Source: Bellilinea caldifistulae
Lineage (GTDB): Bacteria; Chloroflexota; Anaerolineae; Anaerolineales; Anaerolineaceae
Length of the DNA: 32,000 nucleotides
Direction of reading: 5' to 3'
NCBI RefSeq assembly: GCF_001306055.1
Contig: NZ_LGHJ01000019.1
Location: 227,986-259,985, forward strand
Shown: piece after piece, positions 2,364-28,376 of the stretch
Numbering within the stretch: the first letter of the stretch is position 1
Layout: every line of letters begins with the position of its first letter
The notes under the pieces: model-generated
The model's input: the letters and a program-made list of their open reading frames with translations, nothing else
What the model was told of the DNA's origin: nothing
The model's database searches: none
Translations under genes and position numbers: made by a program

Positions 2364-4070
2364 TTGAAGATTATTTCTGGGTTTAACCCTGAGAGGTATA
2401 AACCTACCATGGATCCATTAAAAATAGGCTCTCATACTCGCTTTAATTCCCCTCAAAATCTTTTCTGGTCCGGTGACACAGCCGCACTTTCCACGGATGT
2501 TGAAATCATTCGCCAAAGACTGTTATCCTTAGACTCACCCTTGTTGGTGGTAACTGACGGTCAGAATGTCTGGCTCACGGATGAGGGAACCATCCTGCCA
2601 GGGGAGAAAAACTCCACCACCTCCTACCGCTGGCTGGCAACCCTGCCTCCTTCACCAATCGAATCGCTTGGTGATTCATCTTTTCAGGAATGGTACGGCT
2701 GCCGTTACGCTTATTACAGCGGCGCCATGGCCAACGGGATTGCCTCCACCCGCCTGGTCATTGCCATGGGCAAAGCCGGTTTTCTGGCATCCTTTGGTGC
2801 GGCAGGTCTTTCCCCCGAACGGATCGAGGCGGCTATCCACGAAGTTCAAACTGCCCTGCCGCAAGGGCCGTATGCCTTCAACCTGATCAACAGCCCAAAT
2901 GAACCCGCCCTGGAACGTCGCGCGGCCGAGTTGTATGTCCAACACGGCATTCGCAGCGTGGAGGCTTCCGCTTATCTGGAAATTACCCCTGCCCTGGTGT
3001 ACTACCGCGCCAACGGATTAATCAGTCAGCCGGACGGTACAATCCGCATTCAAAACCGGCTGATTGCAAAATTATCCCGTAAAGAAGTCGCCCGTCAGTT
3101 CATGCTCCCGGCCCCTGATGAGATCCTCAATCAATTGGTGCAGGAGAACCGATTGACCGAAACTCAGGCAAATCTCGCCCGCCGTGTTCCAATGGCCGAC
3201 GACATCACCGTTGAGGCTGATTCGGGAGGACACACCGATAACCGCCCATTAGTGGGACTGCTCCCATCTATTCTGACCCTGAGGGATGAGATTCAAGATC
3301 AAATGCAGTACCCCGTTCCGATTCGAATTGGCGCAGCCGGGGGAATCAGCACACCTCAGGCAGCCCTGGCAGCGTTAATGATGGGGGCTGCTTATATTGT
3401 CACCGGTTCGGTCAATCAGGCCTGTATTGAGGCCGGGGCATCCGAACACACCCGCCGCCTGCTCGCCCAGGCCGACATGGCGGATGTTACCATGGCACCT
3501 GCCGCCGACATGTTCGAAATGGGCGTCAAAGTCCAGGTTTTGAAACGCGGCACCATGTTTGCCATGCGGGCTTCCAAGCTCTACGAATTGTATTCCCGCT
3601 ATCCATCCCTTGAAGCCATCCCCGTTGAGGAACTTCAAAAACTGGAAAAGACCGTTTTCAAGCGCCCAGTCGAAGAAATCTGGCAGGATACGGTGCGATT
3701 CTTCCAGCAGCGCGATCCGCGTCAGTTAGAAAGAGCCGAGAAAGATCCGCGTCATAAAATGGCGCTGGTCTTTCGCTGGTACCTGGGACTGTCTTCCCGC
3801 TGGTCAAACAGCGGTGAAAAGGGCCGCGAGATGGACTACCAGATCTGGTGCGGGCCGGCAATGGGAGCTTTCAACGAATGGGTGCGGGGGACCTATCTTG
3901 AAAAGCCTGAAAATCGTTCTGTCGTAGATATTGCTCTCCACATCCTGACCGGGGCGGCATATTTGCAGCGTGTCCGTTTGCTGAACGCCTACGGCGTCCA
4001 AACAAGCCCTGATCTGGAGCGTTACCAACCACTCCAGCCATTGACAGAGTCTATCCTCGAAAAGGCTTGA
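2364..4070 (+). CDS. pfaD: PfaD-family trans-acting enoyl reductase (FMN TIM-barrel, nitronate-monooxygenase-like)
   Basis: PfaD/FabK-type motifs are present: YAYYSGAMANGIAS, ITVEADSGGHTDNRP, IRIGAAGGIS, VTGSVNQ. The track start is TTG 2364. ATG 2409 (MDPLKIG), preceded by GAGAGG, is a more likely start. Confidence 0.8.
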   Translation: MKIISGFNPERYKPTMDPLKIGSHTRFNSPQNLFWSGDTAALSTDVEIIRQRLLSLDSPLLVVTDGQNVWLTDEGTILPGEKNSTTSYRWLATLPPSPIESLGDSSFQEWYGCRYAYYSGAMANGIASTRLVIAMGKAGFLASFGAAGLSPERIEAAIHEVQTALPQGPYAFNLINSPNEPALERRAAELYVQHGIRSVEASAYLEITPALVYYRANGLISQPDGTIRIQNRLIAKLSRKEVARQFMLPAPDEILNQLVQENRLTETQANLARRVPMADDITVEADSGGHTDNRPLVGLLPSILTLRDEIQDQMQYPVPIRIGAAGGISTPQAALAALMMGAAYIVTGSVNQACIEAGASEHTRRLLAQADMADVTMAPAADMFEMGVKVQVLKRGTMFAMRASKLYELYSRYPSLEAIPVEELQKLEKTVFKRPVEEIWQDTVRFFQQRDPRQLERAEKDPRHKMALVFRWYLGLSSRWSNSGEKGREMDYQIWCGPAMGAFNEWVRGTYLEKPENRSVVDIALHILTGAAYLQRVRLLNAYGVQTSPDLERYQPLQPLTESILEKA

Positions 4071-4109: not shown

Positions 4110-4877
4110 TCATTCGCTCAGTTGAATTTCCCGCAAGCGAATAGATGGAATTTCACCGGTTTGTAGTTGAACCGCCAGCGTGACCATGTAGTTGCCGCGT
4201 TGCTGCCACCAGCCAATTAACCGATGGCCTTCTTCCGGCAAATTGCTGCGGTATTCCAAAATCCGCCAGTCTCCCAAATTCGTTGCCATGCCGGGAAACA
4301 CCTGAATCAGGTGAGTATCCACAGCCAACCCGAGCCGCAAAGCCTTCAGGGCGGCCTCTTTGGCGCTCCACAATAATGTGGTACGTCCCGCCTGTGCCTC
4401 TGTGGGGGCTGAAATTACCCATTCGATTTCTTCACCGGTGAAGTAATCCTGCAAGAACGCAGGATGCCGTTCCTCAATCCATTCCAGGTCAATCCCAATC
4501 CAGATACCCTCATTTGCGGTATAGGCTGCCGCCGCTCGTTCGCTGCGGTGAGAGATGCTCAGACAACCAGCCAGCGGTTCACCACCCACTTTAACCAGCG
4601 GATAGCCGTGATGGTGATTTTCAACCGAGATTTCAGCCATCGTCTTTCCGGCAAGAGCCGGAACAACACTCAGCAGCATCCGTTTGGCCGTCCAGCGGCC
4701 GCTCAACCATTCGCTGCGCCGCTTGGGGAATCGAATTGTTTCCAGGAAACGCTGTTCCTCGTGAGACAACCAGCTGGTATCAAAAATGGTGAGGTCTCCC
4801 CTCTGCGGGAAAACCTCACCGATGCACCAATCTAAATTGATCTGGCGCTGCCTTTTAGAGAGTGGCATCTGTCCCAT
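4110..4877 (-). CDS. Sfp-type 4'-phosphopantetheinyl transferase (PfaE-like)
   Basis: It has the WIGIDLE and WSAKEAALKA (W-x-x-KE-x-x-K) PPTase signatures. Its ATG at 4877 overlaps the last 23 nt of the megasynthase ORF, which suggests translational coupling. Confidence 0.8.
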   Translation of the reverse strand: MGQMPLSKRQRQINLDWCIGEVFPQRGDLTIFDTSWLSHEEQRFLETIRFPKRRSEWLSGRWTAKRMLLSVVPALAGKTMAEISVENHHHGYPLVKVGGEPLAGCLSISHRSERAAAAYTANEGIWIGIDLEWIEERHPAFLQDYFTGEEIEWVISAPTEAQAGRTTLLWSAKEAALKALRLGLAVDTHLIQVFPGMATNLGDWRILEYRSNLPEEGHRLIGWWQQRGNYMVTLAVQLQTGEIPSIRLREIQLSE

Positions 4878-7800
4878 TGACCAGTAATTTCATCGGTTTA
4901 AGCAGTGCCGCATCTACGGTGTAGGGCAATGCCACAGTCCGGTAATCCTTCACTTCCAGGTAGACCATGCCGTTCTGATCCACCAGCCTGGCATCAAATG
5001 CCAGACTGCCATCACTCGATCGGCTGGGAATGACCTCGGCAAACAATGGCTTGTCCTCCTGCGGCACACTGCGATGCAGCACCAGTTCGCCAATTGAGCG
5101 CGGTAATGCCAATGTGCCGGTCGCTCCCGCTTCCCAGATGCCAGCAGTCTGCAAAATCGCTTCCAGCAAAATCGGCATGGTTACCAACGAGACCGGCTGC
5201 TCGGTGATAGCCGGCAGGGATTCACGGACTTTGCCCAACACCTTCCCCTCCACCCGTTGGACGCCTTCCAGGACTTGGAAAGAAGGGCCGTGGAAGTAGA
5301 GACGATAGATCTCATCGCTGGCAACGGTGTAAGCGCCGTTCCAACCGGGCGGTTGAACTTTAACCGATGCAGATTTTTCCGTCTTTGGGGTCAAATAAAC
5401 TTTTCCGGCAAAGTGCTGGATGACTTCATTCGGACGAGTTTTAGCAACCAGGGTCGATTCAAGGCTGACATAAGCCACCAAACCACTCGCCTCGCGGATT
5501 ACTCTGGCTTTCCAGGTTACCCGGCGCGGTTCGTTGCGGTAGAACTTGAAGGGAGCCAGGAATTGAACATCTTCCAGACGTTCAACTGCAAAGCCGACTT
5601 TTTCAGCACCCAACACTGAAGCAACATGCTTCGCCGCCGCTGAAAATCCTTCAATTCCCATCACCCCCGGCAGCAAGGGGATTCCGTTCAAAGCATGGTC
5701 TTTGAGAAACGGCTGGTCATTCGGATTCAATTCGGCTTCCAGCAGCACACCGGTTTGCAGGTCAAAGCCGTTCACTGCGCTGAGCATGACATGCGCCGGG
5801 CTACCTTCGCGTAAAGCCTGATTAGCGGCTTCCAGGTTCAAACCGCTCTCCTTGCGGAGCGGTTTTTCCAGAACACCCAACGAACCGGAAACTACCACCT
5901 CACTGACCGGCTCATTCCCTACCAGTTCTTCATAAACAAAGCGGGCTGCCTGCTTCGGAGGCATCTGGTCAATCCCGCCCATTTCCATTAATTGAGGAAT
6001 ATATCCGCGACTCGCCATCCCCACCTGCGCCCAGGCGCTCCAATCAATGGTGACCACCCGCATTTCCGGGTGCAGACCACGCAGGTGAGAAGCAGCCTTT
6101 GCCAGCCAGTCATTGGCAGCACTGTAATCGGTCTGACCGGAATTGCCAAACCTGCCGGCAACCGAACCAAACAGCAACACCTGCTTTGGCAATCTATCCG
6201 CTGTTTGAAGGGCTTTGTAAAGATTGAAGAAACCTCCGGCTTTAACCTGAATAGTCGTACGGAATTCTTCCTCCGGTTTGAGATGCAGCTTTCGGCTGCG
6301 TTCAATGCCGGCTGCATGAATCAGGACATCCACGCGACCATTCTCCTCGACAATCTGACCAATGGTCTCCCCTACCTGATGAGGATCGGTAACATCACAT
6401 AACCGGTAGACCACGCTGGCTCCAAGTGAACGGGCAGTCTGAATGGCATCCAGAATGCCAGCCATACGCTCCAATGCAGCCAGTTTCTCTTCCACCTGCG
6501 CAGGGGAAGGTTTTTGTCCGTTGGCGCTCATTTCTCTGAGCAGGTCTTTTTTCAAGCCATCCCGATCCGCTTTTAATCGCTGGAGGGCTGCATCCTGAGG
6601 ATCGGCTAACGGACTGCGTCCCAGCAGGTAGAAGATGCCCTGCGTTCGCTGTGCCAGATCCGTAAGGATTGGCGCAACAATACCGCCAGCCCCGCCGCTG
6701 ATAATCATTACCGGTTTCTCAGGTAGAGTTGATTGGACCGGATTGTTTCCTTCTTCTTCAAAGAGGGCAATGCTAAAGCGCTGATCGCCCTCCCAGCCGA
6801 CTTCAACCACAGAGGCATCGCCGAGCGTCTCTCCGACCAGGCGGGCAGCAATCTGGCTATCATTTGCGCCTGCTTCAAAATCTACCACCTTGACCAACGC
6901 GTTTGGCCGTTCACGGCTAATAGCTTTGGCAAAGCCGGAAATCAAACCGCCCGAAACATTCTTAGCCGCAGTTACGCAGGTTCCATGCAGGCCGCCCATG
7001 CGGGTTGCACAGATCAAGAAAGGCTCACCTTCCACCATCCGGAGCAAGTGATAGAGGCGTACCAGGCGATTATCTACCAGAGATTGCCAGACACGAACAT
7101 CCTGTTCCGCCAGTGATGGCTCATGGTTCAAACCGACCAGGTAATACAAACCCTGAACCCTGCCAGTGCTTTGGAAGGAGGCAACTTTTTCCTGCCATTC
7201 CTCGGGCGTCTGGGAGGAATCCAGAGTCAAAATTTGGACTTTGCGGGCGCGCAACCTGCGGGCAAGGGAATCGGCTGTTTTGCCTTCATCACTCACCAGA
7301 ATCACCCTGCTGTTTTCATCTAGAGTGACTCCGCTCGGCAGACACAAATCCAATTTCGGCAGCAGCACCGGTTTTGGAACCCTTCGGCGGATGAGAATTT
7401 GCGTCTCTGCCGGCTCTTCGGTTGGTTTAGGCTCTTCAACGGTCTCCATGGCAACCGGAGCTTGCACCTCTTTGGTTGACAGCGCCTGCGCCGTCGGCTC
7501 TTTTGTTGAAACGGACTCAACAACAGGGGTAGCGGTGACAGGTTTTTCTTCGGAAACGGGCAGTTCCTCGGTGCTGGTCGCCTTCCCATTCGTTGATAAC
7601 GCCTCAACCATGAAGCCGATGACTTTTTTCAAGGTGTTGTAATCCACCAACCTGAGGTCTTCCCGCCGCGGGATGTTGTAGTGGGTGCGGATAGTCGCAA
7701 ACAGTTCCGCCTGTTTTACCGTGTCAATTCCTAAATCGGCTTCCAGGTCCAAATCCAAATCCAGCATTTCAACCGGATAGCCCGTCTTTTCACTGACAAC

Positions 7801-10800
7801 CGACAGCACGTAGGTTTTAATTTCCTCTTCATCCACACCGGAGATGGAAGTCCGTGTTGGTGTTGAAGAAGGCTGTTCGCTCTCAGCCTGGACTGGTGCC
7901 GATACTTCGGCAGGTTCAACCGCCTTGCTGACCGGCTGGGCAACCGTTGTAGCAGCCGGTTGAGACTGACTGACAACCCCGCTGCTCAAAGCGTCCACCA
8001 TGAAGTCAATCACCTTCTCCAGGGTGTTGTAATCCACCAGCCGCAGGTCTTCCCGCCGCGGGATGTTGTAGTGGGTGCGGATGGTAGCAAACAATTCAGC
8101 CTGTTTGACGGTATCAATCCCTAAATCGGCTTCCAGGTCAAGCCCCAGGTCGAGCATTTCAACCGGGTAACCGGTCTTTTCACTGACCACTGAAAGCACA
8201 TATTCTTGAATGGCTGCCCGGTCAACGGCCGGGGCTGCAGAAAGAGACGGGACTGATTGAGCCACCTGCATAGGTATCGGCTGAGGTTCAGACTTATCCG
8301 AAGCAGGCATGGCTACATCTTCAGCCGGTTGAGCCTGAGCAGCTATCGCAGCCGCATTTTCCGCCATGAAGGAAATCACTTTGTTGAGGGTGTTGTAATC
8401 AACCAGCCGCAAATCTTCCCGTCTGGGGATGTTGTAATGCGTTCGAATTGCAGCAAAGATTTCAGCTTGTTTCACCGTATCAATGCCCAAATCGGCTTCC
8501 AGATCCAGATCCAAATCCAGCATCTCGACCGGGTAACCCGTTTTTTCACTGACCAGATTGAGAACAAATTCTTTGATCTCATCTACCTTGACCGGTGATC
8601 TGCCGGCGGGCGAGGAAGTTCCCAAGACAACAGGCTGGAGTTTTTCCTTTTCTTCAACCGCTTCAACAGGATGAGCGGCAGGCTGCGGACTCGGCACACC
8701 GACCGGTTGAGATTGCGGCAATTGATCCGGCTGCTCTGCCCAGCGGGTAGGTCCCTGCCCATACTGCCAGCGGGATTTAGCCGGCGGTTTAACCGGCGGT
8801 CCCATGTGGCGGATCCGGAGAGTGCGTTTTTCCACCTCCAATTCGGCTTTTTCGTAACCCGCAATTTCCGCCAGCCATTGCTGATAGACTGGTTGATTGA
8901 TCCTTTCCTTTACATGGGCAACCACCCGGAATAACGCCATGGCAATTTGCGAGCCAAAACCGGCCCCCAACCGCAGAGCATAACTGACCGGGTATTCACC
9001 GCCTTTTGATAGGTTCAAATCACCCAGATCCGGGTCGGGTTCAAAATTCTCATCATAATTGGCAATCGGCGGCACAATTCCATGTTCCAGGGCTTTGATC
9101 GCCACAACATCTTCAATCCCCACGCCCATTGCATGACCGGTGTACCCTTTGGTATTTGCGATGATCACCTGATTGGCTTTATCGCCAAAGGTGTATCGGA
9201 GTGCCTGAATCTCCGCGGAAGCCGAACCGCCTCTGGCGGGGGTGTAGGTTTCGTGAGACATGAACATGGTTTGAGCGGCAATTTCTTCCCGGCGAATACC
9301 AAAACGCTGCTCGGCCGTGCTGATCAGGCGATTCATGATTTCCCGCACATGGGGAACATCCAGGCGGGTTCCATGATAAGCGCTATTGGCGATATCCGTC
9401 GCCAACACCTCACAAATCGCCCGCATGCCGCGTTCTCGCACCGCATCTTCGGACTCAACTACCAGTGCGGCCGCCCCCATTCCCATGATCATCCCATTCC
9501 GCCGGCGGTCAAACGGCAAAGCAGCCATACGCAGATTACCTTCTGTGGTAGCCGCACCAGAAACGAACAAGCCGGTTCCAATCCACTCCGCCAGCGGACC
9601 GCCGGTCACATCGTCACCCGCAATGATGACGACTCGGCGGCAACGTCCGGCGCGAATCCAGTCTTCAGCAACCGCAATCGCATGGGTTGTGGTGGCACAG
9701 GCAGCGTTGACATGCGTATTCGGGCCGCGTGCGCCAATATATTCAGCAAATTGCGAATGCCCCATTGAAAGCACCCGGAAGACAAAACGGCGATCAAAAT
9801 GGTAATCCATCTCTTTGAGCCTTGTTTCCAGTGCTTTGATTCGCTCGCGCAGCAGGTTTCTCACCCCCGTCTGATCCACTGCGACCAGACTGAGAATGTT
9901 GCGCACTTCTTCTAACTGCTTCTCAACTTGCTTGTATTCGGAATAACGCGACATCTCTTCCGCCATTTCATCCAGCCCCGGGAAGGCAGAAGCAAAGATC
10001 ACACCGGTTTCATCAGCCAGCGCTTCTGGCAAGCGCCAGCGGTCGGGGAGATAAGTGCCTTTACTGGTCTTACGATAGGCCATTACCAGGGGAATTCCGG
10101 CATCCCTCAAAGCTTCAATGCCGGCAGCCACTGCGAGTTGGGTGGTAATATCCCAGGCATCCGCACGCTCTACCGGAATGCCGAACTCTTCCACCGGATC
10201 AAATTGCCCGCGCTGTCCACCCAACTTTACGGTCAAATCCACGCTTTCAATCGGGATCATCTGGGCGCCGGCTTCGCTTTTTTCCAAACGGGTTGGCCGC
10301 TTTTCCACCATTCGCTTGCGCAATTCTTCCGGCAAAGGTTCAATGCGGATTTCGCCTTTTAAAATACTCAGGATATTCTCATCATTGAAAACGGGTTTTG
10401 ATCTGCCCGGCAGCCCCAAGCCTGCACCGCTGATCACGACCGAACCCGTCAATGGCAGGCGACCGTCGTTGACCGGTGTCTGTACTTCAACCATCGGTTT
10501 TACAGACGCGCTAATCGCAACCGGGGGGACTGATTTCACACTTACCTCATCAATAGCGGATTTTTGAGTGGACACTTGTGCTGGCGTTTCAAGTTTCTGT
10601 TCTCGACCGGGCGCAATTCCCGCTGCCAGCAGACCACAAACTGCTTCGTTAAAACTGACCACTGCACCTTTTCGGGGATGATTGGTTGCCAGCAGCATGA
10701 CACCCGAGCGGTCTTTGAAAATATCATTTGCCAGAGCGTTCAATACCCGTTTCGGCCCAATCTCGACAAAGACTCTTGCTCCGGCATTATAGAGCGTTTC

Positions 10801-13410
10801 CATGCCTTTAATAAATTGCACTGGCGAGGCAACCTGCTTTCCCAAAATATCCAGAATCTGTTCCCGGCTGGTGGGGTAAAACTCGCCGGTCACATTGGCT
10901 GCCACCGGAATCTTGGGGGATTGCAGGTTCATACGCGCAATAACCTGTTTGAGGGGCTCGCTTGCCGGGGCAACAATTTTTGTGTGGAACGCATGAGAGA
11001 CAGAGATGCGGGTGGCCTGGTAACCGGCTTTTTCAAAAGCCTCTAAGGCAGCCTGAATACCTGCCGTGCTGCCACCCACGACCGATTGCATGGGGCTATT
11101 GATGTTGGCGATGACCACATATTCCGAGATTTCCTGTAAGATCCGTTCAACCTCTTGAATGGGAGCAGAAACTGCCACCATACCACCATTATCCGCCACC
11201 GAGACTTTTTTCATCTCACGGCCGCGTGCCGAAACGACTTCCAAAGCCTCCGCAAAAGTCAATACGCCGGATGCCACCAGTGCGGCATATTCCCCAAGGC
11301 TGTGACCAATCACAAAATCGGGGGAAAACCCGAATTTCTCCATCAACCGCAGCAATGCGACATTGGCCGTCAACATCGCTGGCTGAGTGATCGCCGTATC
11401 CCGTAATGCGGCTTCGGCTTGTTTTAACGATTCTTCGTCCCCCTCTACATAAATGTAACTGGTTAAGGGACGCCCCAAAATGGGTGTCATGATCGCATCA
11501 GCCTCTTTGAAGGTATCCGCTACAAGTGGTTCGGCTTCGCACAGGTCTTTGAGCATGTTGACATATTGAGATCCCTGCCCGGGGAACATAAAGGCAACTT
11601 TACCAGCCTTCCCGCTGCCCCGATAAACCCCCTGGGCAGTCAGCGCCTGCCAGGCATTTGGGGCTTCATTGTCGAGCGTTTTAAGCGCTTTTTCTCCCCG
11701 TGAAATCAACTCCTCAACCGATGAGTAGTCAATCACCAATCGCTCGGGCTTGGTTACCATCGCCGCATCTGGCAATTGGGAAGGTGGTAATTGACCCTGG
11801 CGGGCATTTTCTAAAATTTGAGCCAGTTGTTCCTTTAACTGCTGGCTGTTTTCCCCACTCAGGAAGGCGATTCCGCGATAAGGCACGGGCAAGGTCGAAG
11901 AAACCGCTTCCGCCACGACTTGCGGAGCAGGACTTTCCACCTGCGCCGCTTTTCTTTCCGGCACCGCAAACACCTTTGTTTCAGAAGTCAGCAGCCCCGG
12001 CACCCATTCTTCCAGCACCATGTGAAAGTTGGTGCCGCCAAAACCAAACGAACTGACTCCAGCCCGGCGGATTTCTCCAGGGGCATTTTCCCACGGTCGG
12101 GTTTCGGTATTGACGTAAAAGGGAATGCGGTCGAAATCAATATTTGGGTTGGGTTTATGGAAATTCACAGAGGGCGGCAAAACTTTTTCGTACAAGGCGT
12201 ACATGGCTTTCAGGACACCCGCCGCCCCGGCCGCACTCTTCAAATGACCAATATTGGACTTGACCGATCCCATCGCAATGCTGCGCGGTGGCAGACCAAA
12301 CTTTCCAAAAACCTCGTTGAGAGATTGTGTCTCCACCACATCCCCAACCCGCGTGGAGGTGCCATGGGCTTCAATCAAACCCACACTGGCAGGGTTTACG
12401 CCGGCATTCTTCCAGGCCCGTTCAATCGCACGCTGCTGACCAAGAGGATTGGGAGCCGTAATCCCTTTACCTTTGCCATCGCTGCTGGCGCCAACCCCGC
12501 GGATAACCGCATAAATTTTATCCCCGTCCCGTTCAGCATCGGCCAGCCGCTTTAACAAAAAGAGCACAGCCCCTTCGCCCATGACGAATCCATTCGCCCC
12601 TTCAGCGAACGGCCGTGAACCGTCCGGCGAAAGCGCCCCAATCTTACAGAATTTTACGAACCCCTCAACCCCCATATTGCGGTCCACACCGCCCGTCAAA
12701 ACCGCATCAAACTGGTGATTGACCAGCCCGTCAATAGCGGCTTGAACCGCTGCATGAGAAGAAGCACAGGCAGCGTCTGTGATGAAATTTGGGCCAGAAA
12801 AATTGAACACATTGGCAATTCGGCCGGCAATCACGTTGCCCAGTTCACCCGGCATGGTATCTTCGGTAATATTGCTCACCCTTTTGCGGATATTTTGCGT
12901 CATTCCCTCCAGCAGCGCCTTCTGCACTTCTGGTGGTAGTTGGGCAAATGCTTCCACTTCTTTAAGGGCTTCCATATAATCCGGCAGACGAATTCGTAGG
13001 CTGGTTATGTAATGGTTTTCACCCGCCAGCGCATTGCCAATAATCACCGCCGTACGTGTTCCATCAAGGGGTTTCTGCGGGTAACCGTAATCTAAAAGAG
13101 CCTGCCGCGCTACACTGATGCCCCACTTTTGGCTTTCATCCATCACCGCCAGAACGTTTGGTGGAATGGGGATCCCCCATTTCAGCGGCTCGAAGGGATA
13201 AGATCGTACCCACGCCCCAATTTTGGTATAAGTTTTATCCGGTGCTTTTGGATCAGGATCATAATACAAATCCACCCGCCATCGATCGGGCGGAACCTCG
13301 GTCACTGAATATCGCCCTTGCTTGATATTGTTCCAGAATGCAGGCGCATCTTCAGCATCCGGTAAAATTGCCCCCACTCCGACAATTGCAACGGCTCTAG
13401 GATCAAACAT
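4855..13410 (-). CDS. PfaA-like iterative type I polyketide/fatty-acid megasynthase, KS-AT-KS-ACP-ACP-ACP-KR-DH (2851 aa)
   Basis: This is a single uninterrupted 8.5-kb ORF with AAGGAG 6 nt upstream of ATG 13410. Domain motifs are listed in the domain features below. Confidence 0.9.
   Translation of the reverse strand: [2851 protein letters not shown]
4906..5808 (-). other. PKS-type (double hot-dog) dehydratase domain (aa ~2535-2835)
   Basis: It has the HxxxGxxxxP motif in [14 protein letters not shown] (His2572). The position after KR matches PfaA. Confidence 0.7.
5911..7323 (-). other. ketoreductase domain incl. structural subdomain (aa ~2030-2500)
   Basis: It has the Rossmann motif [10 protein letters not shown] and the SDR catalytic context GQTDYSAAN. 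Confidence 0.75.
7585..7827 (-). other. carrier (ACP-like) domain 3
   Basis: The domain sequence is near-identical to domain 1. The attachment position is Thr1897 (ACG, 7720-7722). Confidence 0.75.
7975..8217 (-). other. carrier (ACP-like) domain 2
   Basis: The domain sequence is near-identical to domain 1. The attachment position is Thr1767 (ACC, 8110-8112). Confidence 0.75.
8341..8583 (-). other. carrier (ACP-like) domain 1
   Basis: Sequence is [50 protein letters not shown]. The attachment position is Thr1645 (ACG, 8476-8478). Confidence 0.75.
8926..10449 (-). other. KS2: second, divergent ketosynthase domain (aa ~988-1495)
   Basis: It has [23 protein letters not shown] with Cys1238 (codon 9697-9699), [12 protein letters not shown] and [13 protein letters not shown]. 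Cys and both His are present, so this is not a CLF. Confidence 0.7.
10696..11601 (-). other. malonyl-CoA:ACP acyltransferase domain (aa ~604-905)
   Basis: It has [20 protein letters not shown] with Ser704 (codon 11299-11301), and SHAFHT. Confidence 0.85.
12007..13401 (-). other. KS1 domain (aa 4-468)
   Basis: It has TDAACASS with Cys215 (codon 12766-12768), [11 protein letters not shown] and [14 protein letters not shown], giving a complete C-H-H triad. Confidence 0.85.
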
Positions 13411-13753: not shown

Positions 13754-14404
13754 ATGCAAATAACCATGATGGAGTTTATTCAACACTTGACCCCTCCCGA
13801 ACAATTGGAATGGGAATCGCTGAATTCCCCTCTTGCCATTCAAAACTTTTTGGACAGCTTACCCTATATCGGTGAAGAGCGGAACCGTTCCCCCTTGAAT
13901 GTTCTGCGTGACCGCCAATGCCACTGCCTGGATGGGGGTTTATTGGCTGCATTAGCCCTCAGCCGCCTCGGATTTCCCCCGTTGCTAATGGATCTCGTAC
14001 CTGAACCCGGAAAAGATGATGATCATGTTCTCGCAGTTTATCGGATCAATGGTTTTTATGGAGCAATTGCCAAATCCAATTTCGTGGGTTTGAGGTTTCG
14101 CGAGCCGGTATACCGCTCGCTGCGGGAATTAGCCATGTCCTATTTTGAGGCTTTTTACAACATCAACGGAGAAAAAACTCTCCGCGGGTACACCCGGCCG
14201 CTGAACCTGAACCGTTTTCAGCATCTGGATTGGGCGGTGAATGAAGAACATGTCGCCATCGTAGTTGACCACTTTTACTCCCTCAAAAGCATCCCTTTGC
14301 TTACCGCAGAGAGCATTGCGCTCCTCTCCCCGATTGACCGCCGTTCTTACGAAGCCGGGATGTTTGGCACCAATTTTGAAGGTCTCTACCGGCCAGGCAT
14401 TTAA
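13754..14404 (+). CDS. transglutaminase-like / NAT-like Cys-His-Asp fold protein
   Basis: It has QCHCLDGGLLAALALSRLG (nucleophile Cys on a helix N-terminus) followed by DDDHVLAVYRINGFYGAIAKSN. The gene is transcribed divergently from the megasynthase. Confidence 0.5.
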   Translation: MQITMMEFIQHLTPPEQLEWESLNSPLAIQNFLDSLPYIGEERNRSPLNVLRDRQCHCLDGGLLAALALSRLGFPPLLMDLVPEPGKDDDHVLAVYRINGFYGAIAKSNFVGLRFREPVYRSLRELAMSYFEAFYNINGEKTLRGYTRPLNLNRFQHLDWAVNEEHVAIVVDHFYSLKSIPLLTAESIALLSPIDRRSYEAGMFGTNFEGLYRPGI

Positions 14405-14898: not shown

Positions 14899-15891
14899 AT
14901 GTTCAAGAAAACCTCGACGGTTGGTGTCGCCACAGCAATTGCCCACCCCAATATCGCCTTCATTAAATACTGGGGAAATCGGGACAATGAATTGCGCCTT
15001 CCGGCAAATGGTTCAATTTCAATGAATCTGGATGGGTTGACAACCCGCACAACCGTTCGATTCGAAACCAGACTTAAGAACGATACTTTTATCCTCAATC
15101 AAAAAATTCAGGGCGGAAAAGCACTTCAACGTGTCAGCGCCTTTCTGGATATTGTCCGAAAAAAGGCAAATTTCAATTACTTTGCCGAAGTCGTCTCCGA
15201 GAACAATTTCCCCACCGGCAGCGGACTGGCCTCCTCCGCGGCAGCCTTTGCCGCACTCAGCCTGGCTGCCACTAAGGCGGCGGGGCTCAATCTTAATCGC
15301 CAGGAACTTTCGGCCCTTGCCCGGCGTGGATCGGGCTCTGCCTGTCGTTCGATCCCAGCCGGCTTCGTTGAATGGCTGCCGGGCAGTGAAGATGAAGATT
15401 CCTATGCCATTTCCATTGCACCACCCAATCACTGGGAATTGATTGACTGCATCGCCATCGTAGAATCCGATCACAAATCCATCGGTTCGACCGAAGGACA
15501 TCAGCTGGCTGCCACCAGCCCCCTTCAAGCGGCACGGGTCGAGGATGCCCCCCGCCGTCTGGATATCTGTCGGCGAGCCATCCTGCAAAAAGATTTTGAG
15601 GCCTTGGCTCAAATTGTTGAATTAGACAGCAATCTTATGCACGCTGTAATGATGACCTCTACACCACCATTATTCTATTGGAATCCTGCCTCAATTGACT
15701 TGATGAAAAAAGTACGCGATTGGCGAGATGCGGGTTTACCGGTATGTTACACCCTGGATGCCGGCCCCAACGTGCATATGATTTGTCTCAACGAAGCCCT
15801 GAACGAGGTAAAATTCCGGCTTCAGCAAATCCCGGCCGTGGAGCAGGTTCTCGTCTGCCGGCCTGGAGGAGCTGCAACCGTATTAGAATAG
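14899..15891 (+). CDS. mvaD: diphosphomevalonate (or phosphomevalonate) decarboxylase, GHMP family
   Basis: It has AHPNIAFIKYWGNRD, SISMNLD, NNFPTGSGLASSAAAFAAL and RRGSGSACRS. Confidence 0.85.
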   Translation: MFKKTSTVGVATAIAHPNIAFIKYWGNRDNELRLPANGSISMNLDGLTTRTTVRFETRLKNDTFILNQKIQGGKALQRVSAFLDIVRKKANFNYFAEVVSENNFPTGSGLASSAAAFAALSLAATKAAGLNLNRQELSALARRGSGSACRSIPAGFVEWLPGSEDEDSYAISIAPPNHWELIDCIAIVESDHKSIGSTEGHQLAATSPLQAARVEDAPRRLDICRRAILQKDFEALAQIVELDSNLMHAVMMTSTPPLFYWNPASIDLMKKVRDWRDAGLPVCYTLDAGPNVHMICLNEALNEVKFRLQQIPAVEQVLVCRPGGAATVLE

Positions 15892-19658: not shown

Positions 19659-20411
19659 TCACTCCTCTGGCTTCCCATCCCACGGATAAACAGCCTGCAT
19701 TGCAGCAAACTCACGCACCGCCGGATCATCAGAGTAGAATCCTCTTTTTTCAGAAGGAAGCAGCAACGCGATCTCGCGCATCATCTCGTGTCCGATTTCT
19801 TCTAAACGATTGCGGTCGGTTTCACCCCGCTCTGAGACAAAAAACGGCCCGAACGGTTTACCAAACCGCACGGTGATTCGGGCTCTCTTCCCGCGTTTGA
19901 GCGTGGGGAACAGGTCGGTCAAACCATCCAGACCTACTGGTAGGATTTTTGCCCGGGTAGAAGAAGCCAGGTAAGCTGCCCCCGGTCGAGCAGGCCGTAA
20001 TACACTTGTCCAATTGCCCGCCTCGGGGAAAATGCCCAGAACGCCTTTCGATTGTAAGACTGCGCGCGATGCATAAAGCGTATCCCGCGAGATTGAGCCT
20101 CGCCGGACTGGTAAAAACCCATACAATTTTGCCAGCCAGATTACGCTTTGAGGGGCGTTCGGCATCCTCAGTCCACCAAGGTACTCGATTGGATATGGGA
20201 CTGAGCCAATGACCGCCACCGGATCCAGAAAACTAAAATGATTGCCGATGACCAGTAACGGTCCCTCTTTTGGAAGATTTTCTCTTCCCTCAATGGAAAA
20301 ATCAGAAAGAACCTGAAAGGCAACCCGGATTAATTGACGCAGGATTGTTCGGATCACTTTCCGACGGGGGTAAGTAATCGTCATATCGTTCATGCACATC
20401 ACTCGATTCAA
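19659..20411 (-). CDS. PlsC-family lysophospholipid/1-acyl-G3P acyltransferase
   Basis: It has the GNHFSFLDP (HX4D) block and the FPEAGNW block. Its ATG overlaps the MFS stop in the sequence ATGA. Confidence 0.8.
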   Translation of the reverse strand: MNRVMCMNDMTITYPRRKVIRTILRQLIRVAFQVLSDFSIEGRENLPKEGPLLVIGNHFSFLDPVAVIGSVPYPIEYLGGLRMPNAPQSVIWLAKLYGFLPVRRGSISRDTLYASRAVLQSKGVLGIFPEAGNWTSVLRPARPGAAYLASSTRAKILPVGLDGLTDLFPTLKRGKRARITVRFGKPFGPFFVSERGETDRNRLEEIGHEMMREIALLLPSEKRGFYSDDPAVREFAAMQAVYPWDGKPEE

Positions 20412-24462: not shown

Positions 24463-24630
24463 ATGCCCAATCAATTACCTCGAATTGAAATCCCCAAAGA
24501 TGAAATCGAGTTCGATTTTATCCGTGCTTCCGGCCCCGGTGGACAGAATGTCAACGGCGTGTGTACGAAAACCCTGACGTCTCCCCAAACCACCCGGTCA
24601 CCTTCCCGGAGCCGTCTTTTGAGAGAATAA
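24463..24630 (+). pseudogene. arfB: 5' fragment of an arfB/yaeJ-type peptidyl-tRNA hydrolase (GGQ, RF-1 domain) gene, disrupted after codon 31
   Basis: My own translation gives MPNQLPRIEIPKDEIEFDFIRASGPGGQNVN, then unrelated GVCTKTLTSPQ... to TAA 24628-24630. At 55 aa it is below the ORF-track cutoff. Similarity ends at about 24555, exactly where the recombinase gene ends. Confidence 0.7.
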
Positions 24631-26158
24631 CCTTGGCGTGCAACAGCTCCAGCACCTGACGCTTGCTCTCTGGTGTAGGGTCCCAATCCTCATTTGCAAT
24701 CCGTTCCCTTACTTTCTGGGCAAAACCTTCTAAATCTTCAAACTGCCTCTGAGTTGGTACTGCTGTGGGTACGGACTCAATCTCCTCTATTCTCGCGCGG
24801 ACTTCGGTAAGATCCCGGTCTAACTGCACCCTTTGGGCGAGATATTCGGTTTTTGTCATCTGGATGTCTGGATCGGTGTAAGCGCGGGTCAAATTGGTTA
24901 ACTTTTGCTCTAGTTTGCCGGCTGACCGATAATACCCTTCCAGTAGGATGCGCGAACGCGAGCGATTTTCCACATCCAATTGTTGAGCCTGGTAATAAGC
25001 CTGTCTCAAAACCTCTGTATCGACCAGCATTTCCTTTACGGCTTCCCAAACACGTTCTTCCAGACTTACTGCTGTTATTTCCCGATCCATACACTGGCCT
25101 TCAATTCTGCGATGGCGATAGGATCGATGGGCTTTTCGATGCTCCTTTGGACGATCCTTTTGGAAATTGGCTCTGTAAGGTTTCTCACATTCCATACAAC
25201 GGATCATCCCGGATAATAGATAAAAGTGTTGAGGTTGGCGGCGGAGCGCTTCACGATGGTCCTTTATCCTCATTTGAACGAGGTTAAATAATTGCACGTC
25301 TATCAGAGGGGCAATTTCAATCTTAATCCATTCACGTTTTTCACGTGGTTTTAGATCCGAATTACTCCGGCATACCGATTTGTTGTAATGGACATACCCT
25401 TTATAAGTGGTATTGGTCAGGATGTTTCGAATGGCGGATAAGTGCCAGTTTGGTTTACCCGTGTAGGAAGGAATACTACAGTTTTCTAGCTCAACACGAA
25501 TCCTGTGCATAGAGTAGTTCTCCTCGCCATAAAGCGAGAAGATCAATCGAACGACCTCGGCTTGCTCAGGATGAATAGGCAGTCCCCCCATTCCCTTCGC
25601 ATCCAATATGTAACCATACGGTGTCCGTCCACCAACATACAGACCCTTTTCGGCTTTACCACGTTTCCCACGATTACAACGCTCAACCCGTTTGGCGTTC
25701 TCCCACTTGGCAAACGTGGCGTCCATATCTTTGCGCACCTCTCCTTCAGGGAAGTCGTCATAATTTCCGAGCGCAAATTCGACTTTAGCTCCGCGCCGGA
25801 AGAATTCCTTCTCCAAGGTTTGGCGGATGTATGGGTCGCGGGCTAACCGATCGATCGAATGGACCACAACAACATCAAAGCCATAATCTTCGAGATTGGT
25901 CAGCGCAGCATCCAGACTGGGACGGTTCATTTCACGGGAGGAATAATCATCAACGTAAGCGGGAATTGAATTGGGATTTTTCTCAACATCCAGGCCGCTT
26001 TGTTTGTCCACGAACGCATTGCCCACTAGGGTATAACCGTTATTTTGACAATACTTGACGCATTCCGCAATTTGGGTGGGAATTCTGAAGTTGGATCGCT
26101 GATCGTTCGTAGAAACCCGAGAGTAAATAATCGCACGTTTGGTAGCCATAATTATCAC
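24551..26158 (-). CDS. large serine recombinase (integrase)
   Basis: It has the N-terminal AIIYSRVSTNDQ catalytic Ser motif and the resolvase core VVVHSIDRLARD. It also has a recombinase domain, a Cys-rich zinc ribbon (CMECEKPY) and a coiled-coil C-terminus. The probable true start is ATG 26149, with AGGTGA 5 nt upstream. Confidence 0.9.
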   Translation of the reverse strand: MIIMATKRAIIYSRVSTNDQRSNFRIPTQIAECVKYCQNNGYTLVGNAFVDKQSGLDVEKNPNSIPAYVDDYSSREMNRPSLDAALTNLEDYGFDVVVVHSIDRLARDPYIRQTLEKEFFRRGAKVEFALGNYDDFPEGEVRKDMDATFAKWENAKRVERCNRGKRGKAEKGLYVGGRTPYGYILDAKGMGGLPIHPEQAEVVRLIFSLYGEENYSMHRIRVELENCSIPSYTGKPNWHLSAIRNILTNTTYKGYVHYNKSVCRSNSDLKPREKREWIKIEIAPLIDVQLFNLVQMRIKDHREALRRQPQHFYLLSGMIRCMECEKPYRANFQKDRPKEHRKAHRSYRHRRIEGQCMDREITAVSLEERVWEAVKEMLVDTEVLRQAYYQAQQLDVENRSRSRILLEGYYRSAGKLEQKLTNLTRAYTDPDIQMTKTEYLAQRVQLDRDLTEVRARIEEIESVPTAVPTQRQFEDLEGFAQKVRERIANEDWDPTPESKRQVLELLHAKVILSKDGSGKVTGWFGETSGFSYTRR

Positions 26159-26662
26159 CTAACCCTTAATGATCTTAACGCCATGTCCATTGCGCCGAAT
26201 GCGCCCTTCAGTTTCGAGACGTTCCAGGTAGGAGTAAACCATCTGCCTGGACATGTTCAGTGTACGCGCAGCATCTGTCACCCCAATCGTTGGATTGTCA
26301 CGGAACAGTGTCAAAAGATTGTCCATTCGGTTACCTTGAATGACCGCCCTGGCTTGACGCGCTTTGACTAACGAGCTGTCTGGAGTGACAGTATTAGACG
26401 CTGCATTGGACGCTAACAGTTCAGTCAGACTCCCCGTTGTTGGACGAACAGCTTGACGTTCCGCTTTACGCTCAGCACGATCCTGGGCAATACCTGCCAG
26501 ACGCCGGCGATGACCAGAACACAAGGCCAGATTGACGGCACCGACCAGCGCCAGAATTGGAAAGAGCGCCGGCGCGTAACGGGCCAGATCTGGGTAAATA
26601 TCCAGCAGCACGGTCAAACCAATGGTGGAAACCAGGTAAACGCCGACTAAAGAAGCTGCCAA
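26159..26662 (-). CDS. membrane-associated protein with C-terminal winged-HTH
   Basis: Two N-terminal hydrophobic helices are followed by a basic linker. The wHTH reads TIGVTDAARTLNMSRQMVYSYLERLETEGRIRR. The annotated start is a TTG without SD. The frame stays open upstream to a TAA, and an internal ATG gives a 55-aa wHTH-only product. Confidence 0.5.
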   Translation of the reverse strand: MAASLVGVYLVSTIGLTVLLDIYPDLARYAPALFPILALVGAVNLALCSGHRRRLAGIAQDRAERKAERQAVRPTTGSLTELLASNAASNTVTPDSSLVKARQARAVIQGNRMDNLLTLFRDNPTIGVTDAARTLNMSRQMVYSYLERLETEGRIRRNGHGVKIIKG

Positions 26663-26731
26663 TAAAAACGGTGCGTCTGGATTCGTTTTTCCTTTTGCCG
26701 GCGTTGTACTCCCAAAGCAGCAGGCTGGTAC

Positions 26732-26998
26732 TTACGGTAGGCCCAGGCTCTCGATGATCTCAGCGGCGACCCAAGCTAACTCAGCGCTCCAATGCAAGTC
26801 TTTGACTGTGGGATTGGCCACCAAAACCGCACTGGGAATGGGCATGATCCAGAGACCGATGGCGGCAATGCCATCGGTCAGGTTGGTCTCAATTTCCGAG
26901 AGAGTCTCCCGGAATCGAAAAAGAAAAGATTGATCAGCCAAGATGAGCCTCCTATACATGTAGGGGGCAACAAAAAGCCCCCGGTAAATGGTCCCCAC
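26732..26998 (-). CDS. small hydrophobic protein, possibly the N-terminal part of the downstream ORF
   Basis: It contains IAAIGLWIMPIPSAVLVA and AELAWVAAEIIESLGL. It is in the same frame as 26159-26662, separated only by TAA 26732-26734. Confidence 0.35.
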   Translation of the reverse strand: MGTIYRGLFVAPYMYRRLILADQSFLFRFRETLSEIETNLTDGIAAIGLWIMPIPSAVLVANPTVKDLHWSAELAWVAAEIIESLGLP

Positions 26999-27012
26999 CG
27001 AGGGCGAATCCT

Positions 27013-27145
27013 GGCTGATCAGCTATAATGAGATCAGCCCCTACCTCCGCTAGTACCGGTGGTTGGGGTCAGGTTCGTGTAGGTGCTCGCTACACCTGCA
27101 CGAACCATCCTATGGTTTTGTTCTATCTATTATATCTCATAGAAC
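27013..27145. other. structured non-coding region with three stem-loops
   Basis: Stem 1 is GGCTGATC/GATCAGCC (27013-27020 / 27032-27039), with TATAAT in the loop. Stem 2 is GGTTCGTG..AGGTG/CACCT..CACGAACC (27072-27106). Stem 3 is GTTCTAT/ATAGAAC around an AT-rich loop (27120-27145). Confidence 0.35.
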
Positions 27146-27213
27146 AAATATGCGAGTAATCGAATTCGGGCTATCCGGAAGTAGCGAGCCAACCGGAACA
27201 AAAGTCAATAGCG

Positions 27214-27441
27214 CTAGTTACGATGGGTGCTGGGCGGCAGCGTAAAACCGCCAGCCACCCATGCCTCTAACTCCTCCTCGGAAACGCCCAGCAGTTCGCA
27301 CCAATTCAGCCCGACAAACTGAAACCATGTTCGAGCCTCGGTCACGCAGGCCGGGTTATCGCTCTCCAGATCCAGCACGGGATGGTAGATCATGGCCAGG
27401 GCCAGGTCTATATACGGGTCATGGATAATCACGTCATCCAT
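27214..27441 (-). CDS. small hypothetical protein (75 aa from ATG 27441)
   Basis: The ATG overlaps the upstream stop in ATGGATGA, which suggests translational coupling. No recognisable motif was found. Confidence 0.4.
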   Translation of the reverse strand: MDDVIIHDPYIDLALAMIYHPVLDLESDNPACVTEARTWFQFVGLNWCELLGVSEEELEAWVAGGFTLPPSTHRN

Positions 27442-28366
27442 CTTTGCTTTCCTCGGATTTCTCCGGAAGATAGATATGGATGACCTCCCCATCTGTAACC
27501 GCCGTCAATCGTTCTCTCAACTGTGGTATGGGCGAGCCGCTGATTTTCTCGGCCTCCACATCCTTATCCAGGAAGATCGACAGTGCCATAGCCAGCAGCT
27601 CTGGGTTGTAACCGGCCTCGATCCTGCCATCCGGCAGCCGGCGCCAGCAGCCGCCAATCGTGGGCATTTTACTGTCCGCGGGCAGGCGGATGACGATTTC
27701 ACAATTCAACCAGAGTGCTTCAGTCTCTTGTGACATTTGGCCATCAGTGACATGAGTGACATTATTTTCTTGCCCCAGCTCGTTCGGCAGTTGGATGTTA
27801 TAAACGGCTGCCCAGCGTGTCAGATCTGCGAGGGTGATCTGCCACATGCGCGTACCTTTGCCGGCTTCACACGCCTTGCGCAGCCTGAGTTTTCCCAGCA
27901 GCCGTCCCACCTTCCGTGAAGTTATTTTCTCCGGGTCGATATCGGCTTCGGTTTGCTCGGCGATGTGCTGGGCGGCTTCGCTGATCTGAGATGTCGTAAA
28001 TGTCCATCCGGCTGAATGGATGTCACTGTTGTCTTTAATGTCACTCTTTTCATCTGCCAGCTTACACAGCCCCTCCAGCACCAGTAAAAAGATGTCTCCC
28101 GATTGCTGGTCGGCGCTCTCCTCCTGCTGGTAGCGCCAGGACATCTCCTCCAATCGCTGCCAGAGGCCGCCTATTACCACCTGGTCCTGACCTTGATTGC
28201 GAACTGTGTAAGAGTGCTGCAATCGGTGCTGCTGATCAAGACTGTCCCACCAGGCGGCGACGGATAGGATCGCTTTCCACGGCTGAAGGTTGCGCCCACT
28301 CAAGCGGGCATTTTGGGCGACATGAGTTTCAAAATCATGCAGCAAGGGCAAATTTGCCAGACCCAC
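27434..28366 (-). CDS. hypothetical protein; probably the C-terminal half of the primase/helicase-like protein
   Basis: Its GTG start has no SD. The frame is open upstream into the preceding ORF and reachable by a +1 shift at the C6 run (28393-28398). Confidence 0.5.
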   Translation of the reverse strand: MGLANLPLLHDFETHVAQNARLSGRNLQPWKAILSVAAWWDSLDQQHRLQHSYTVRNQGQDQVVIGGLWQRLEEMSWRYQQEESADQQSGDIFLLVLEGLCKLADEKSDIKDNSDIHSAGWTFTTSQISEAAQHIAEQTEADIDPEKITSRKVGRLLGKLRLRKACEAGKGTRMWQITLADLTRWAAVYNIQLPNELGQENNVTHVTDGQMSQETEALWLNCEIVIRLPADSKMPTIGGCWRRLPDGRIEAGYNPELLAMALSIFLDKDVEAEKISGSPIPQLRERLTAVTDGEVIHIYLPEKSEESKDG

Positions 28367-28376
28367 GGCCCACAGA

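Follow-up and report, generated by a model that had tools for sequence, protein, structure and literature searches.

A PfaA-like synthase locus in Bellilinea caldifistulae

The 32-kb stretch of DNA analysed in this work (the window) originates from Bellilinea caldifistulae (Anaerolineae, Chloroflexota) and encodes a PfaA-like type I synthase of 2851 amino acids (aa) whose three tandem carrier domains have Thr at the position where acyl carrier proteins (ACPs) have the Ser that is modified with 4'-phosphopantetheine. The synthase open reading frame (ORF; 4855..13410, minus strand) is translated without interruption, its product is 100% identical to a public protein of this species, and its Pfam domains and its match to NCBIfam TIGR02813 (omega_3_PfaA) give the order KS1-AT-KS2-(carrier)x3-KR-DH. 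The TIGR02813 score of 1040 bits is a marginal pass (cut-off 1010.1), canonical PfaA proteins scoring 2202-3907 bits on the same model. Pfam and motif checks found the catalytic motifs of all enzymatic domains, each encoded on the minus strand, to be intact: Cys215/His349/His389 in the first ketosynthase (KS1; aa 5-470, 12001..13398), GHSLG with Ser704 in the acyltransferase (AT; aa 607-907, 10690..11592), Cys1238/His1386/His1426 in the second ketosynthase (KS2; approximately aa 990-1480, 8971..10443, boundaries approximate), YSAAN in the ketoreductase (KR; aa 2235-2461, 6028..6708) and HxxxGxxxxP with His2572 in the polyketide synthase-type dehydratase (DH; aa 2550-2829, 4924..5763).

A gene for an Sfp-type 4'-phosphopantetheinyl transferase (PPTase) of 255 aa (4110..4877, minus strand) has its ATG 23 nucleotides (nt) before the synthase stop codon, the two ORFs overlapping by 23 nt. 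Convergent with it lies a gene for a PfaD-family trans enoyl reductase (2364..4070, plus strand), with PfaD_N, NMO and FabD_helical_ins domains and a score of 680 bits on TIGR02814 (cut-off 449). The same arrangement of PfaD, PPTase and synthase genes was found in Longilinea arvoryzae and Anaerolinea thermolimosa. Judged from these domains, the synthase and PfaD should make up a complete reducing cycle, which needs a thiol-bearing carrier. No carrier domain was found in the 32-kb window besides the three of the synthase, and neither PfaB nor PfaC (KS-CLF with a FabA-type dehydratase/isomerase) was present among the window ORFs of at least 150 aa scanned with Pfam.

Threonine at the attachment position of the three carrier domains

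All three carriers, encoded on the minus strand, read LEADLGIDTVKQAE(I/L)F: carrier 1 (aa 1609-1686, 8353..8586) was delimited with Pfam PF00550, and codon checks on it, on carrier 2 (aa 1731-1808, 7987..8220) and on carrier 3 (aa 1861-1938, 7597..7830) placed Thr1645 at ACG 8476-8478, Thr1767 at ACC 8110-8112 and Thr1897 at ACG 7720-7722. These are exactly the codons and positions reported in an earlier note on this DNA, which had claimed that Thr stands in the place of the modified Ser, and sequence, profile and predicted structure now confirm that register. The carriers matched PF00550 in three stretches (63 bits, cut-off 20.8); the hallmark of this family is a Ser at the N-terminus of helix II, and all three carriers have Thr there. 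In a phmmer comparison with the PDB, the Thr fell opposite the Ser that is modified in the PigH ACP doublet, the S. coelicolor fatty acid synthase ACP and others, and in a hidden Markov model (HMM) alignment it shared a column with the Ser of DLGIDSIKRVEIL in canonical PfaA carriers. The profile alignment that the note had proposed as a check thus left Thr in the Ser column. In the AlphaFold model of carrier 2 (mean predicted local distance difference test score, pLDDT, 93.8), with helices at residues 4-19, 40-54 and 70-82, helix II begins exactly at the Thr, and Foldseek matched the model to solved ACPs with template modelling (TM) scores of 0.75-0.85. The carriers are therefore predicted to adopt the ACP-type helical bundle. 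A Ser at the N-terminus of helix II, which the note had named as the observation that would speak against its claim, appeared neither in the HMM alignments nor in the model.

Between carrier copies, protein identity is 80-89% and DNA identity 73-80%, with synonymous differences in 42-51% of the codons that encode identical residues. Differences in such number indicate that the copies are old and under purifying selection, and they bear out the argument that the repeated Thr reflects neither a sequencing error nor a recent mutation. A sequencing error or pseudogene was ruled out by the intact ORF, the many synonymous differences and the identical public protein, and a recent duplication of the carriers by the synonymous divergence between copies. 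Tandem Repeats Finder detected no repeat in the DNA, because the copies are only 73-80% identical at that level; the repeat is real in the protein.

Distribution of the threonine carriers

Among 120 full-length orthologues (53-100% identity), the approximately 397 carrier motifs all read DLG(I/V)DTVKQAE. We also scanned one genome per prokaryotic species with a back-translated pattern that permitted Thr, Ser, Arg, Cys or Trp at the site and was conditioned on the VKQAE helix. The matches listed, from at least 120 loci, comprised at least 303 Thr codons (156 ACC, 120 ACG, 14 ACT and 13 ACA) and a single Ser codon, and a profile scan of the 309 carriers in these loci gave 305 Thr, four Ser and no other residue. 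A single nucleotide change would turn Thr into Ser, and yet Ser is almost never used, which argues that Thr is selected, as the note had supposed; the use of all four Thr codons and the uniform orthologue motifs point the same way. The survey of homologues for Thr against Ser that it had called for accordingly found Thr dominant across both orthologues and species genomes.

The profile scan of the listed loci found no conserved Ser elsewhere in the carrier domain, column 12 being Ala in 202 and Ser in 59 cases; the Ser of VSEKTGYP in the Bellilinea carriers is Ala in most family members. An alternative Ser attachment site was dismissed, as no Ser is conserved in the domain.

The listed loci belong to Chloroflexota, Acidobacteriota, Actinomycetota (including isolates of Amycolatopsis, Planobispora and Mycolicibacterium), Myxococcota, Elusimicrobiota (including Elusimicrobium minutum) and Gemmatimonadota, and also to Rhodothermales, Bdellovibrionales, Spirochaetes and Desulfomonilaceae. 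Four are archaeal metagenome-assembled genomes (MAGs), two of Heimdallarchaeota, one of Thermoplasmatales and one unclassified; loci from MAGs, the archaeal ones included, may hold binning errors, but the Heimdallarchaeum record is a closed chromosome. Judged by sequence, hundreds of relatives of the Bellilinea synthase, in more than ten phyla, also have Thr at the site; such synthases occur in nearly all Anaerolineae and are frequent in soil Acidobacteriota and Actinomycetota.

An exhaustive search with HMMER that carried no such condition, against 1.84 billion cluster representatives, returned 5943 matches with E <= 1e-3; of these, 2838 had E <= 1e-10 and 740 had E <= 1e-30. Among the best 150 proteins, 101 had Thr-only carriers, 40 had Ser-only carriers of canonical PfaA type (DSIKRVEIL or DSIKKAQLF), three were mixed, and a few had one degenerate copy. 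These matches show the Thr family to be large and sister to the canonical Ser carriers of PfaA, a synthase of polyunsaturated fatty acids (PUFAs).

Several further observations came from these searches. A second Thr flavour, DLGIDTVKQVE or VKQVA, occurs in synthases of 3.5-4.0 thousand aa with other architectures (P0271, P0281, P0287 and P0354), so the Thr site is not confined to the 'Type R' layout described below. The sole Ser match listed in the motif scan belongs to a different system: the locus of an uncultured actinomycetote (L014:3995-5671, DLGVDSVKQAE) encodes a 558-aa AT-carrier-carrier protein beside a KAS III-like protein and an AMP-dependent ligase. The matches listed for a single-carrier search (P0001-P0120) were all small 'stand-alone' proteins (65-138 aa) with Thr at the site, several sharing one long contig; these are probably pieces of tandem arrays that frameshifts or gene calling have broken up in MAGs, not discrete ACPs, and were given no class of their own.

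Exchange of Ser and Thr and co-variation around the site

Thr- and Ser-type carriers have a common framework, namely KTGYP, Glu at -7, Leu at -4, Gly at -3, Asp at -1, Lys at +2, Glu at +5 and Thr at +29 relative to the site. Around it, Thr-type carriers have Val at +1 (97%), Gln at +3 (99%), Ala at +4, Phe at +7, Arg at +11 and Leu at -10; the corresponding residues of Ser-type carriers are Ile (93%), Arg or Lys, Val, Leu, Gln and Met. PPTases and partner enzymes recognise carriers through the surface of helix II, as in the complexes of Sfp with a peptidyl carrier protein and of AcpS with ACP. The co-variation around the Thr fits a recognition helix that may have co-evolved with its PPTase.

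A neighbour-joining tree of the carriers, built with the motif masked and of low resolution with its approximately 67 columns, contained one clade with 95 of the 109 Thr carriers and two Ser carriers, one of which came from an all-Ser protein. As a rough picture, Thr carriers would thus form mostly one clade with a few switches between Ser and Thr. Both residues also occur within single polypeptides: the carriers of the Heimdallarchaeum synthase, from a complete genome, have Ser, Thr and Ser, and TTTTS and STT arrays occur among the best 150 proteins of the HMMER search. These patterns indicate that Ser and Thr have been swapped several times in one column, and that no residue without a hydroxyl is tolerated in the main family.

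The archaeal loci L013 (Ca. Heimdallarchaeum aukensis CP084166), L045, L057 and L094 encode PfaA-like AT-KS-carriers-KR-DH proteins that have a PPTase fused at the C-terminus. The presence in Asgard archaea of an acyl-carrier megasynthase of bacterial type is notable in its own right.

The partner PPTase

The PPTase ORF matched PF01648 with 61 bits (cut-off 25) and the HetI equivalog with 30 bits (cut-off 370). As a single sequence it gave marginal matches to the PDB, with no PPTase there below E = 0.02; the profile of its family, which has 1303 matches at E <= 1e-5, matched Sfp at 1.5e-17. Its AlphaFold model (pLDDT 90.8) was matched over the full length by Foldseek to human AASDHPPT, Sfp and PptT (E = 1.6e-13 to 2byd and 7.8e-13 to 4mrt), with about 15-20% identity to solved PPTases. 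Two family alignments were compared: D130, E174 and K178 are invariant in both; one of them also has H110 and E132 invariant, and the other shows these two conserved to at least 90%. His110/Asp130/Glu132/Glu174/Lys178 align with H90/D107/E109/E151/K155 of Sfp, which we take, with this numbering, to have the catalytic roles described in the Sfp literature. The enzyme thus shares the two-domain fold of the Sfp-type PPTases (Sfp, human AASDHPPT, PptT and PfaE/HetI), and its SISH, G-x-D-x-E and W-S-x-K-E-A-x-x-K motifs align with the catalytic residues of Sfp, but it is very divergent and its presumed substrate hydroxyl is that of Thr. Its sequence predicts a catalytically canonical Sfp-type (group II) PPTase.

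The earlier note had regarded this PPTase as dedicated to the synthase and coupled to it, and the overlap seen here is matched by synteny or fusion in relatives. Among the 45 loci that were informative, having at least 4.8 kb of downstream sequence, 26 had a PPTase homologue directly downstream on the same strand as the synthase. In nine loci the PPTase is fused into the synthase ORF, eight of them with Thr-only carriers in the sequence examined.

Thr as the probable phosphopantetheine attachment site

Taken together, these comparisons make it probable that the helix II Thr is the 4'-phosphopantetheine attachment site and is served by a co-evolved PPTase. The three domains would be functional acyl carriers of an iterative PfaA-like fatty-acid or polyketide synthase, with which the trans enoyl reductase PfaD would work. 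The co-transcribed PPTase would accept Thr: with coenzyme A (CoA) as donor, it would transfer 4'-phosphopantetheine to the hydroxyl of the Thr that starts helix II and so form O-(4'-phosphopantetheinyl)-threonine, and the thiol arm would then bear malonyl and acyl intermediates among KS, AT, KR, DH and PfaD as in PfaA. Why Thr has been kept is a matter for speculation: it may insulate a secondary pathway from housekeeping AcpS-type enzymes, an idea suggested by the description of E. coli ACP S36T as not modifiable by 4'-phosphopantetheine (PMC3340395), and it may also yield a more stable phosphodiester. We lean, with somewhat less assurance, towards a wider proposal in which O-(4'-phosphopantetheinyl)-threonine is a post-translational modification that is natural and widespread, being made by a distinct clade of Sfp-type PPTases in hundreds to thousands of PfaA-like synthases, and in which Thr hides the carriers from housekeeping AcpS-type enzymes, so that carrier and PPTase would be an orthogonal pair.

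Several points weigh against attachment to Thr. The support for the linkage is comparative throughout; the only experimental precedents retrieved point in the opposite direction, S36T being described as unmodifiable (PMC3340395) and S38T of spinach ACP-I being reported to lose function (PMC9310384); 19 of the 45 informative loci have no PPTase in the 8 kb examined; and a search of the PPTase family for an active-site difference from Sfp that could account for the acceptance of Thr turned up no obvious one, the catalytic motifs being those of Sfp. The two mutants concern AcpS-type enzymes and carriers that have no shared evolution with them, and they would agree with a speculative role of Thr in insulation from housekeeping PPTases.

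The earlier note had left a choice between a Thr-linked phosphopantetheine and domains that are not classical holo-ACPs. The evidence favours the linkage, because nothing but Thr or Ser occurs at the site, the rest of the domain has no conserved Ser, the synthase is catalytically intact and no other carrier is encoded with it. The main rival reading, which we consider unlikely, is that the Thr domains are permanently apo pseudo-carriers, acting as scaffold, spacer or docking element, while a discrete Ser-type ACP elsewhere, served by the PPTase, or CoA itself carries the chain. The reported failure of the E. coli machinery to modify S36T (PMC3340395) and the loci lacking a nearby PPTase would suit such domains, as would the degenerate copies with Ala, Gln, Asp or Gly that occur singly in some arrays. 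A pseudo-carrier would, however, have no reason to keep a hydroxyl, and the 305 Thr, four Ser and no other residue of the listed loci are at odds with this, as is the near-invariance of the PPTase-recognition motif DLG(I/V)D-T-VKQAE. The copy number of two to six parallels that of functional PfaA ACP arrays, the window encodes no other carrier, and the eight synthases with Thr-only carriers and a fused PPTase have an enzyme of their own.

Less probable still is that the Thr hydroxyl bears another group, for example a direct O-acyl ester or a CoA-derived moiety like the ribosyl-dephospho-CoA of CitD/MdcC carriers, with a chemistry that would depart from the classical shuttling of thioesters. 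The replacement of Ser by Thr could reflect a different transfer chemistry, and the PPTase is divergent enough that its single sequence found no PDB PPTase below E = 0.02. Yet the enzyme keeps the Sfp fold and the full set of Sfp catalytic and CoA/Mg motifs, the KS, AT, KR and DH domains, whose motifs are intact, are of the standard kind that handles thioesters, and the Ser-type sister carriers are ordinary PfaA ACPs. Attachment to a different residue, with the helix II Thr being structural, deserves very little credence: the Thr of KTGYP and that of YPTL are approximately 97% conserved, but both are framework residues, because they are equally conserved (97-99%) in Ser-type PfaA carriers, and in the AlphaFold model neither lies at the PPTase-facing helix N-terminus of the ACP fold.

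Relation to known systems

The nearest Ser-type relatives of the Thr carriers in the exhaustive HMMER search were the tandem ACPs of PfaA (Shewanella/Photobacterium type; TIGR02813). They resemble the Bellilinea carriers in fold, in KTGYP, in E-x-D-L-G-I-D-x-x-K-x-x-E and in the Thr before helix IV, and the synthases agree in having tandem 'beads' followed by KR and DH, and a PfaD partner. PfaA carriers read DLGID-S-IKRVEIL, whereas those of Bellilinea read DLGID-T-VKQAE(L/I)F, with co-varying positions at +1, +3, +4, +7, +11 and -10.

By its domain layout, the Bellilinea synthase is assigned to the known 'Type R' PfaA-like secondary-lipid synthases. Shulse and Allen (2011) described these as pfaA homologues of the form KS-MAT-CLF-ACP(3-6)-KR with a downstream PPTase, occurring in Koribacter, Solibacter, Elusimicrobium and Roseiflexus and making a product that is unknown (PMC3098273). 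The Bellilinea synthase shares this architecture and the directly downstream PPTase, and the Elusimicrobium minutum locus of our scan (L103) has Thr carriers and a PPTase. The Bellilinea locus differs from the Type R description in two respects: in Anaerolineae the cluster also includes a PfaD reductase, and the domain corresponding to the 'CLF' keeps the full Cys-His-His triad. The Thr site is absent from the Type R paper, in which the word 'threonine' occurs zero times (PMC3098273).

The engineered mutants E. coli ACP S36T and spinach ACP-I S38T carry the same substitution at the same position as the Bellilinea Thr. Unlike them, the Thr carriers found in nature form a family that strong purifying selection maintains and that has its own PPTase. 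Ser-to-Thr mutants serve as standard 'dead' apo-ACP controls, the PROSITE phosphopantetheine pattern fixes Ser, and to our knowledge carrier-protein biochemistry treats the Ser attachment site as invariant. We found no description of a Thr attachment site, a Thr-linked phosphopantetheine or the carrier motif in open-access papers and preprints; matches to 'threonine' concerned the +1 position of DST or helix IV. That the linkage is unreported is provisional and counts as a further reservation, given this open-access scope, as it could be known or disproved elsewhere. What would be new is the acceptor residue, in what the sequences otherwise suggest is an ordinary carrier/PPTase system and not a new kind.

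If attachment to Thr is true, it would be a new linkage chemistry in a universal cofactor system, and annotation rules, together with calls of 'inactive domain' from a missing Ser, would be unsafe. Protein labelling and pathway engineering would also gain an orthogonal carrier/PPTase pair that is ready for use, and there would be a handle on the products of the widespread Type R secondary-lipid synthases.

Other features of the window

KS2 (8971-10443, minus strand), the 'CLF' of the Type R literature, may with its full triad be an active ketosynthase, the second of the protein, and not a CLF. An ORF of 216 aa (13754-14404, plus strand), divergent from the promoter region of the synthase, has no Pfam or NCBIfam match and could encode a regulator or an accessory protein specific to the cluster. 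A large serine recombinase (Resolvase, Recombinase and Zn ribbon domains), an AbiEi/HTH protein and a DUF3854 protein are encoded together at 24551-30092 (minus strand), about 11 kb away from the synthase, and suggest that a mobile element has integrated there; the GC content rises to 0.57 at 28-30 kb. Closer to the synthase, within 7 kb, are genes for a mevalonate diphosphate decarboxylase (14899-15891, plus strand) and a PlsC-type acyltransferase (19659-20411, minus strand), the latter of which could bear on the destination of the synthase product.

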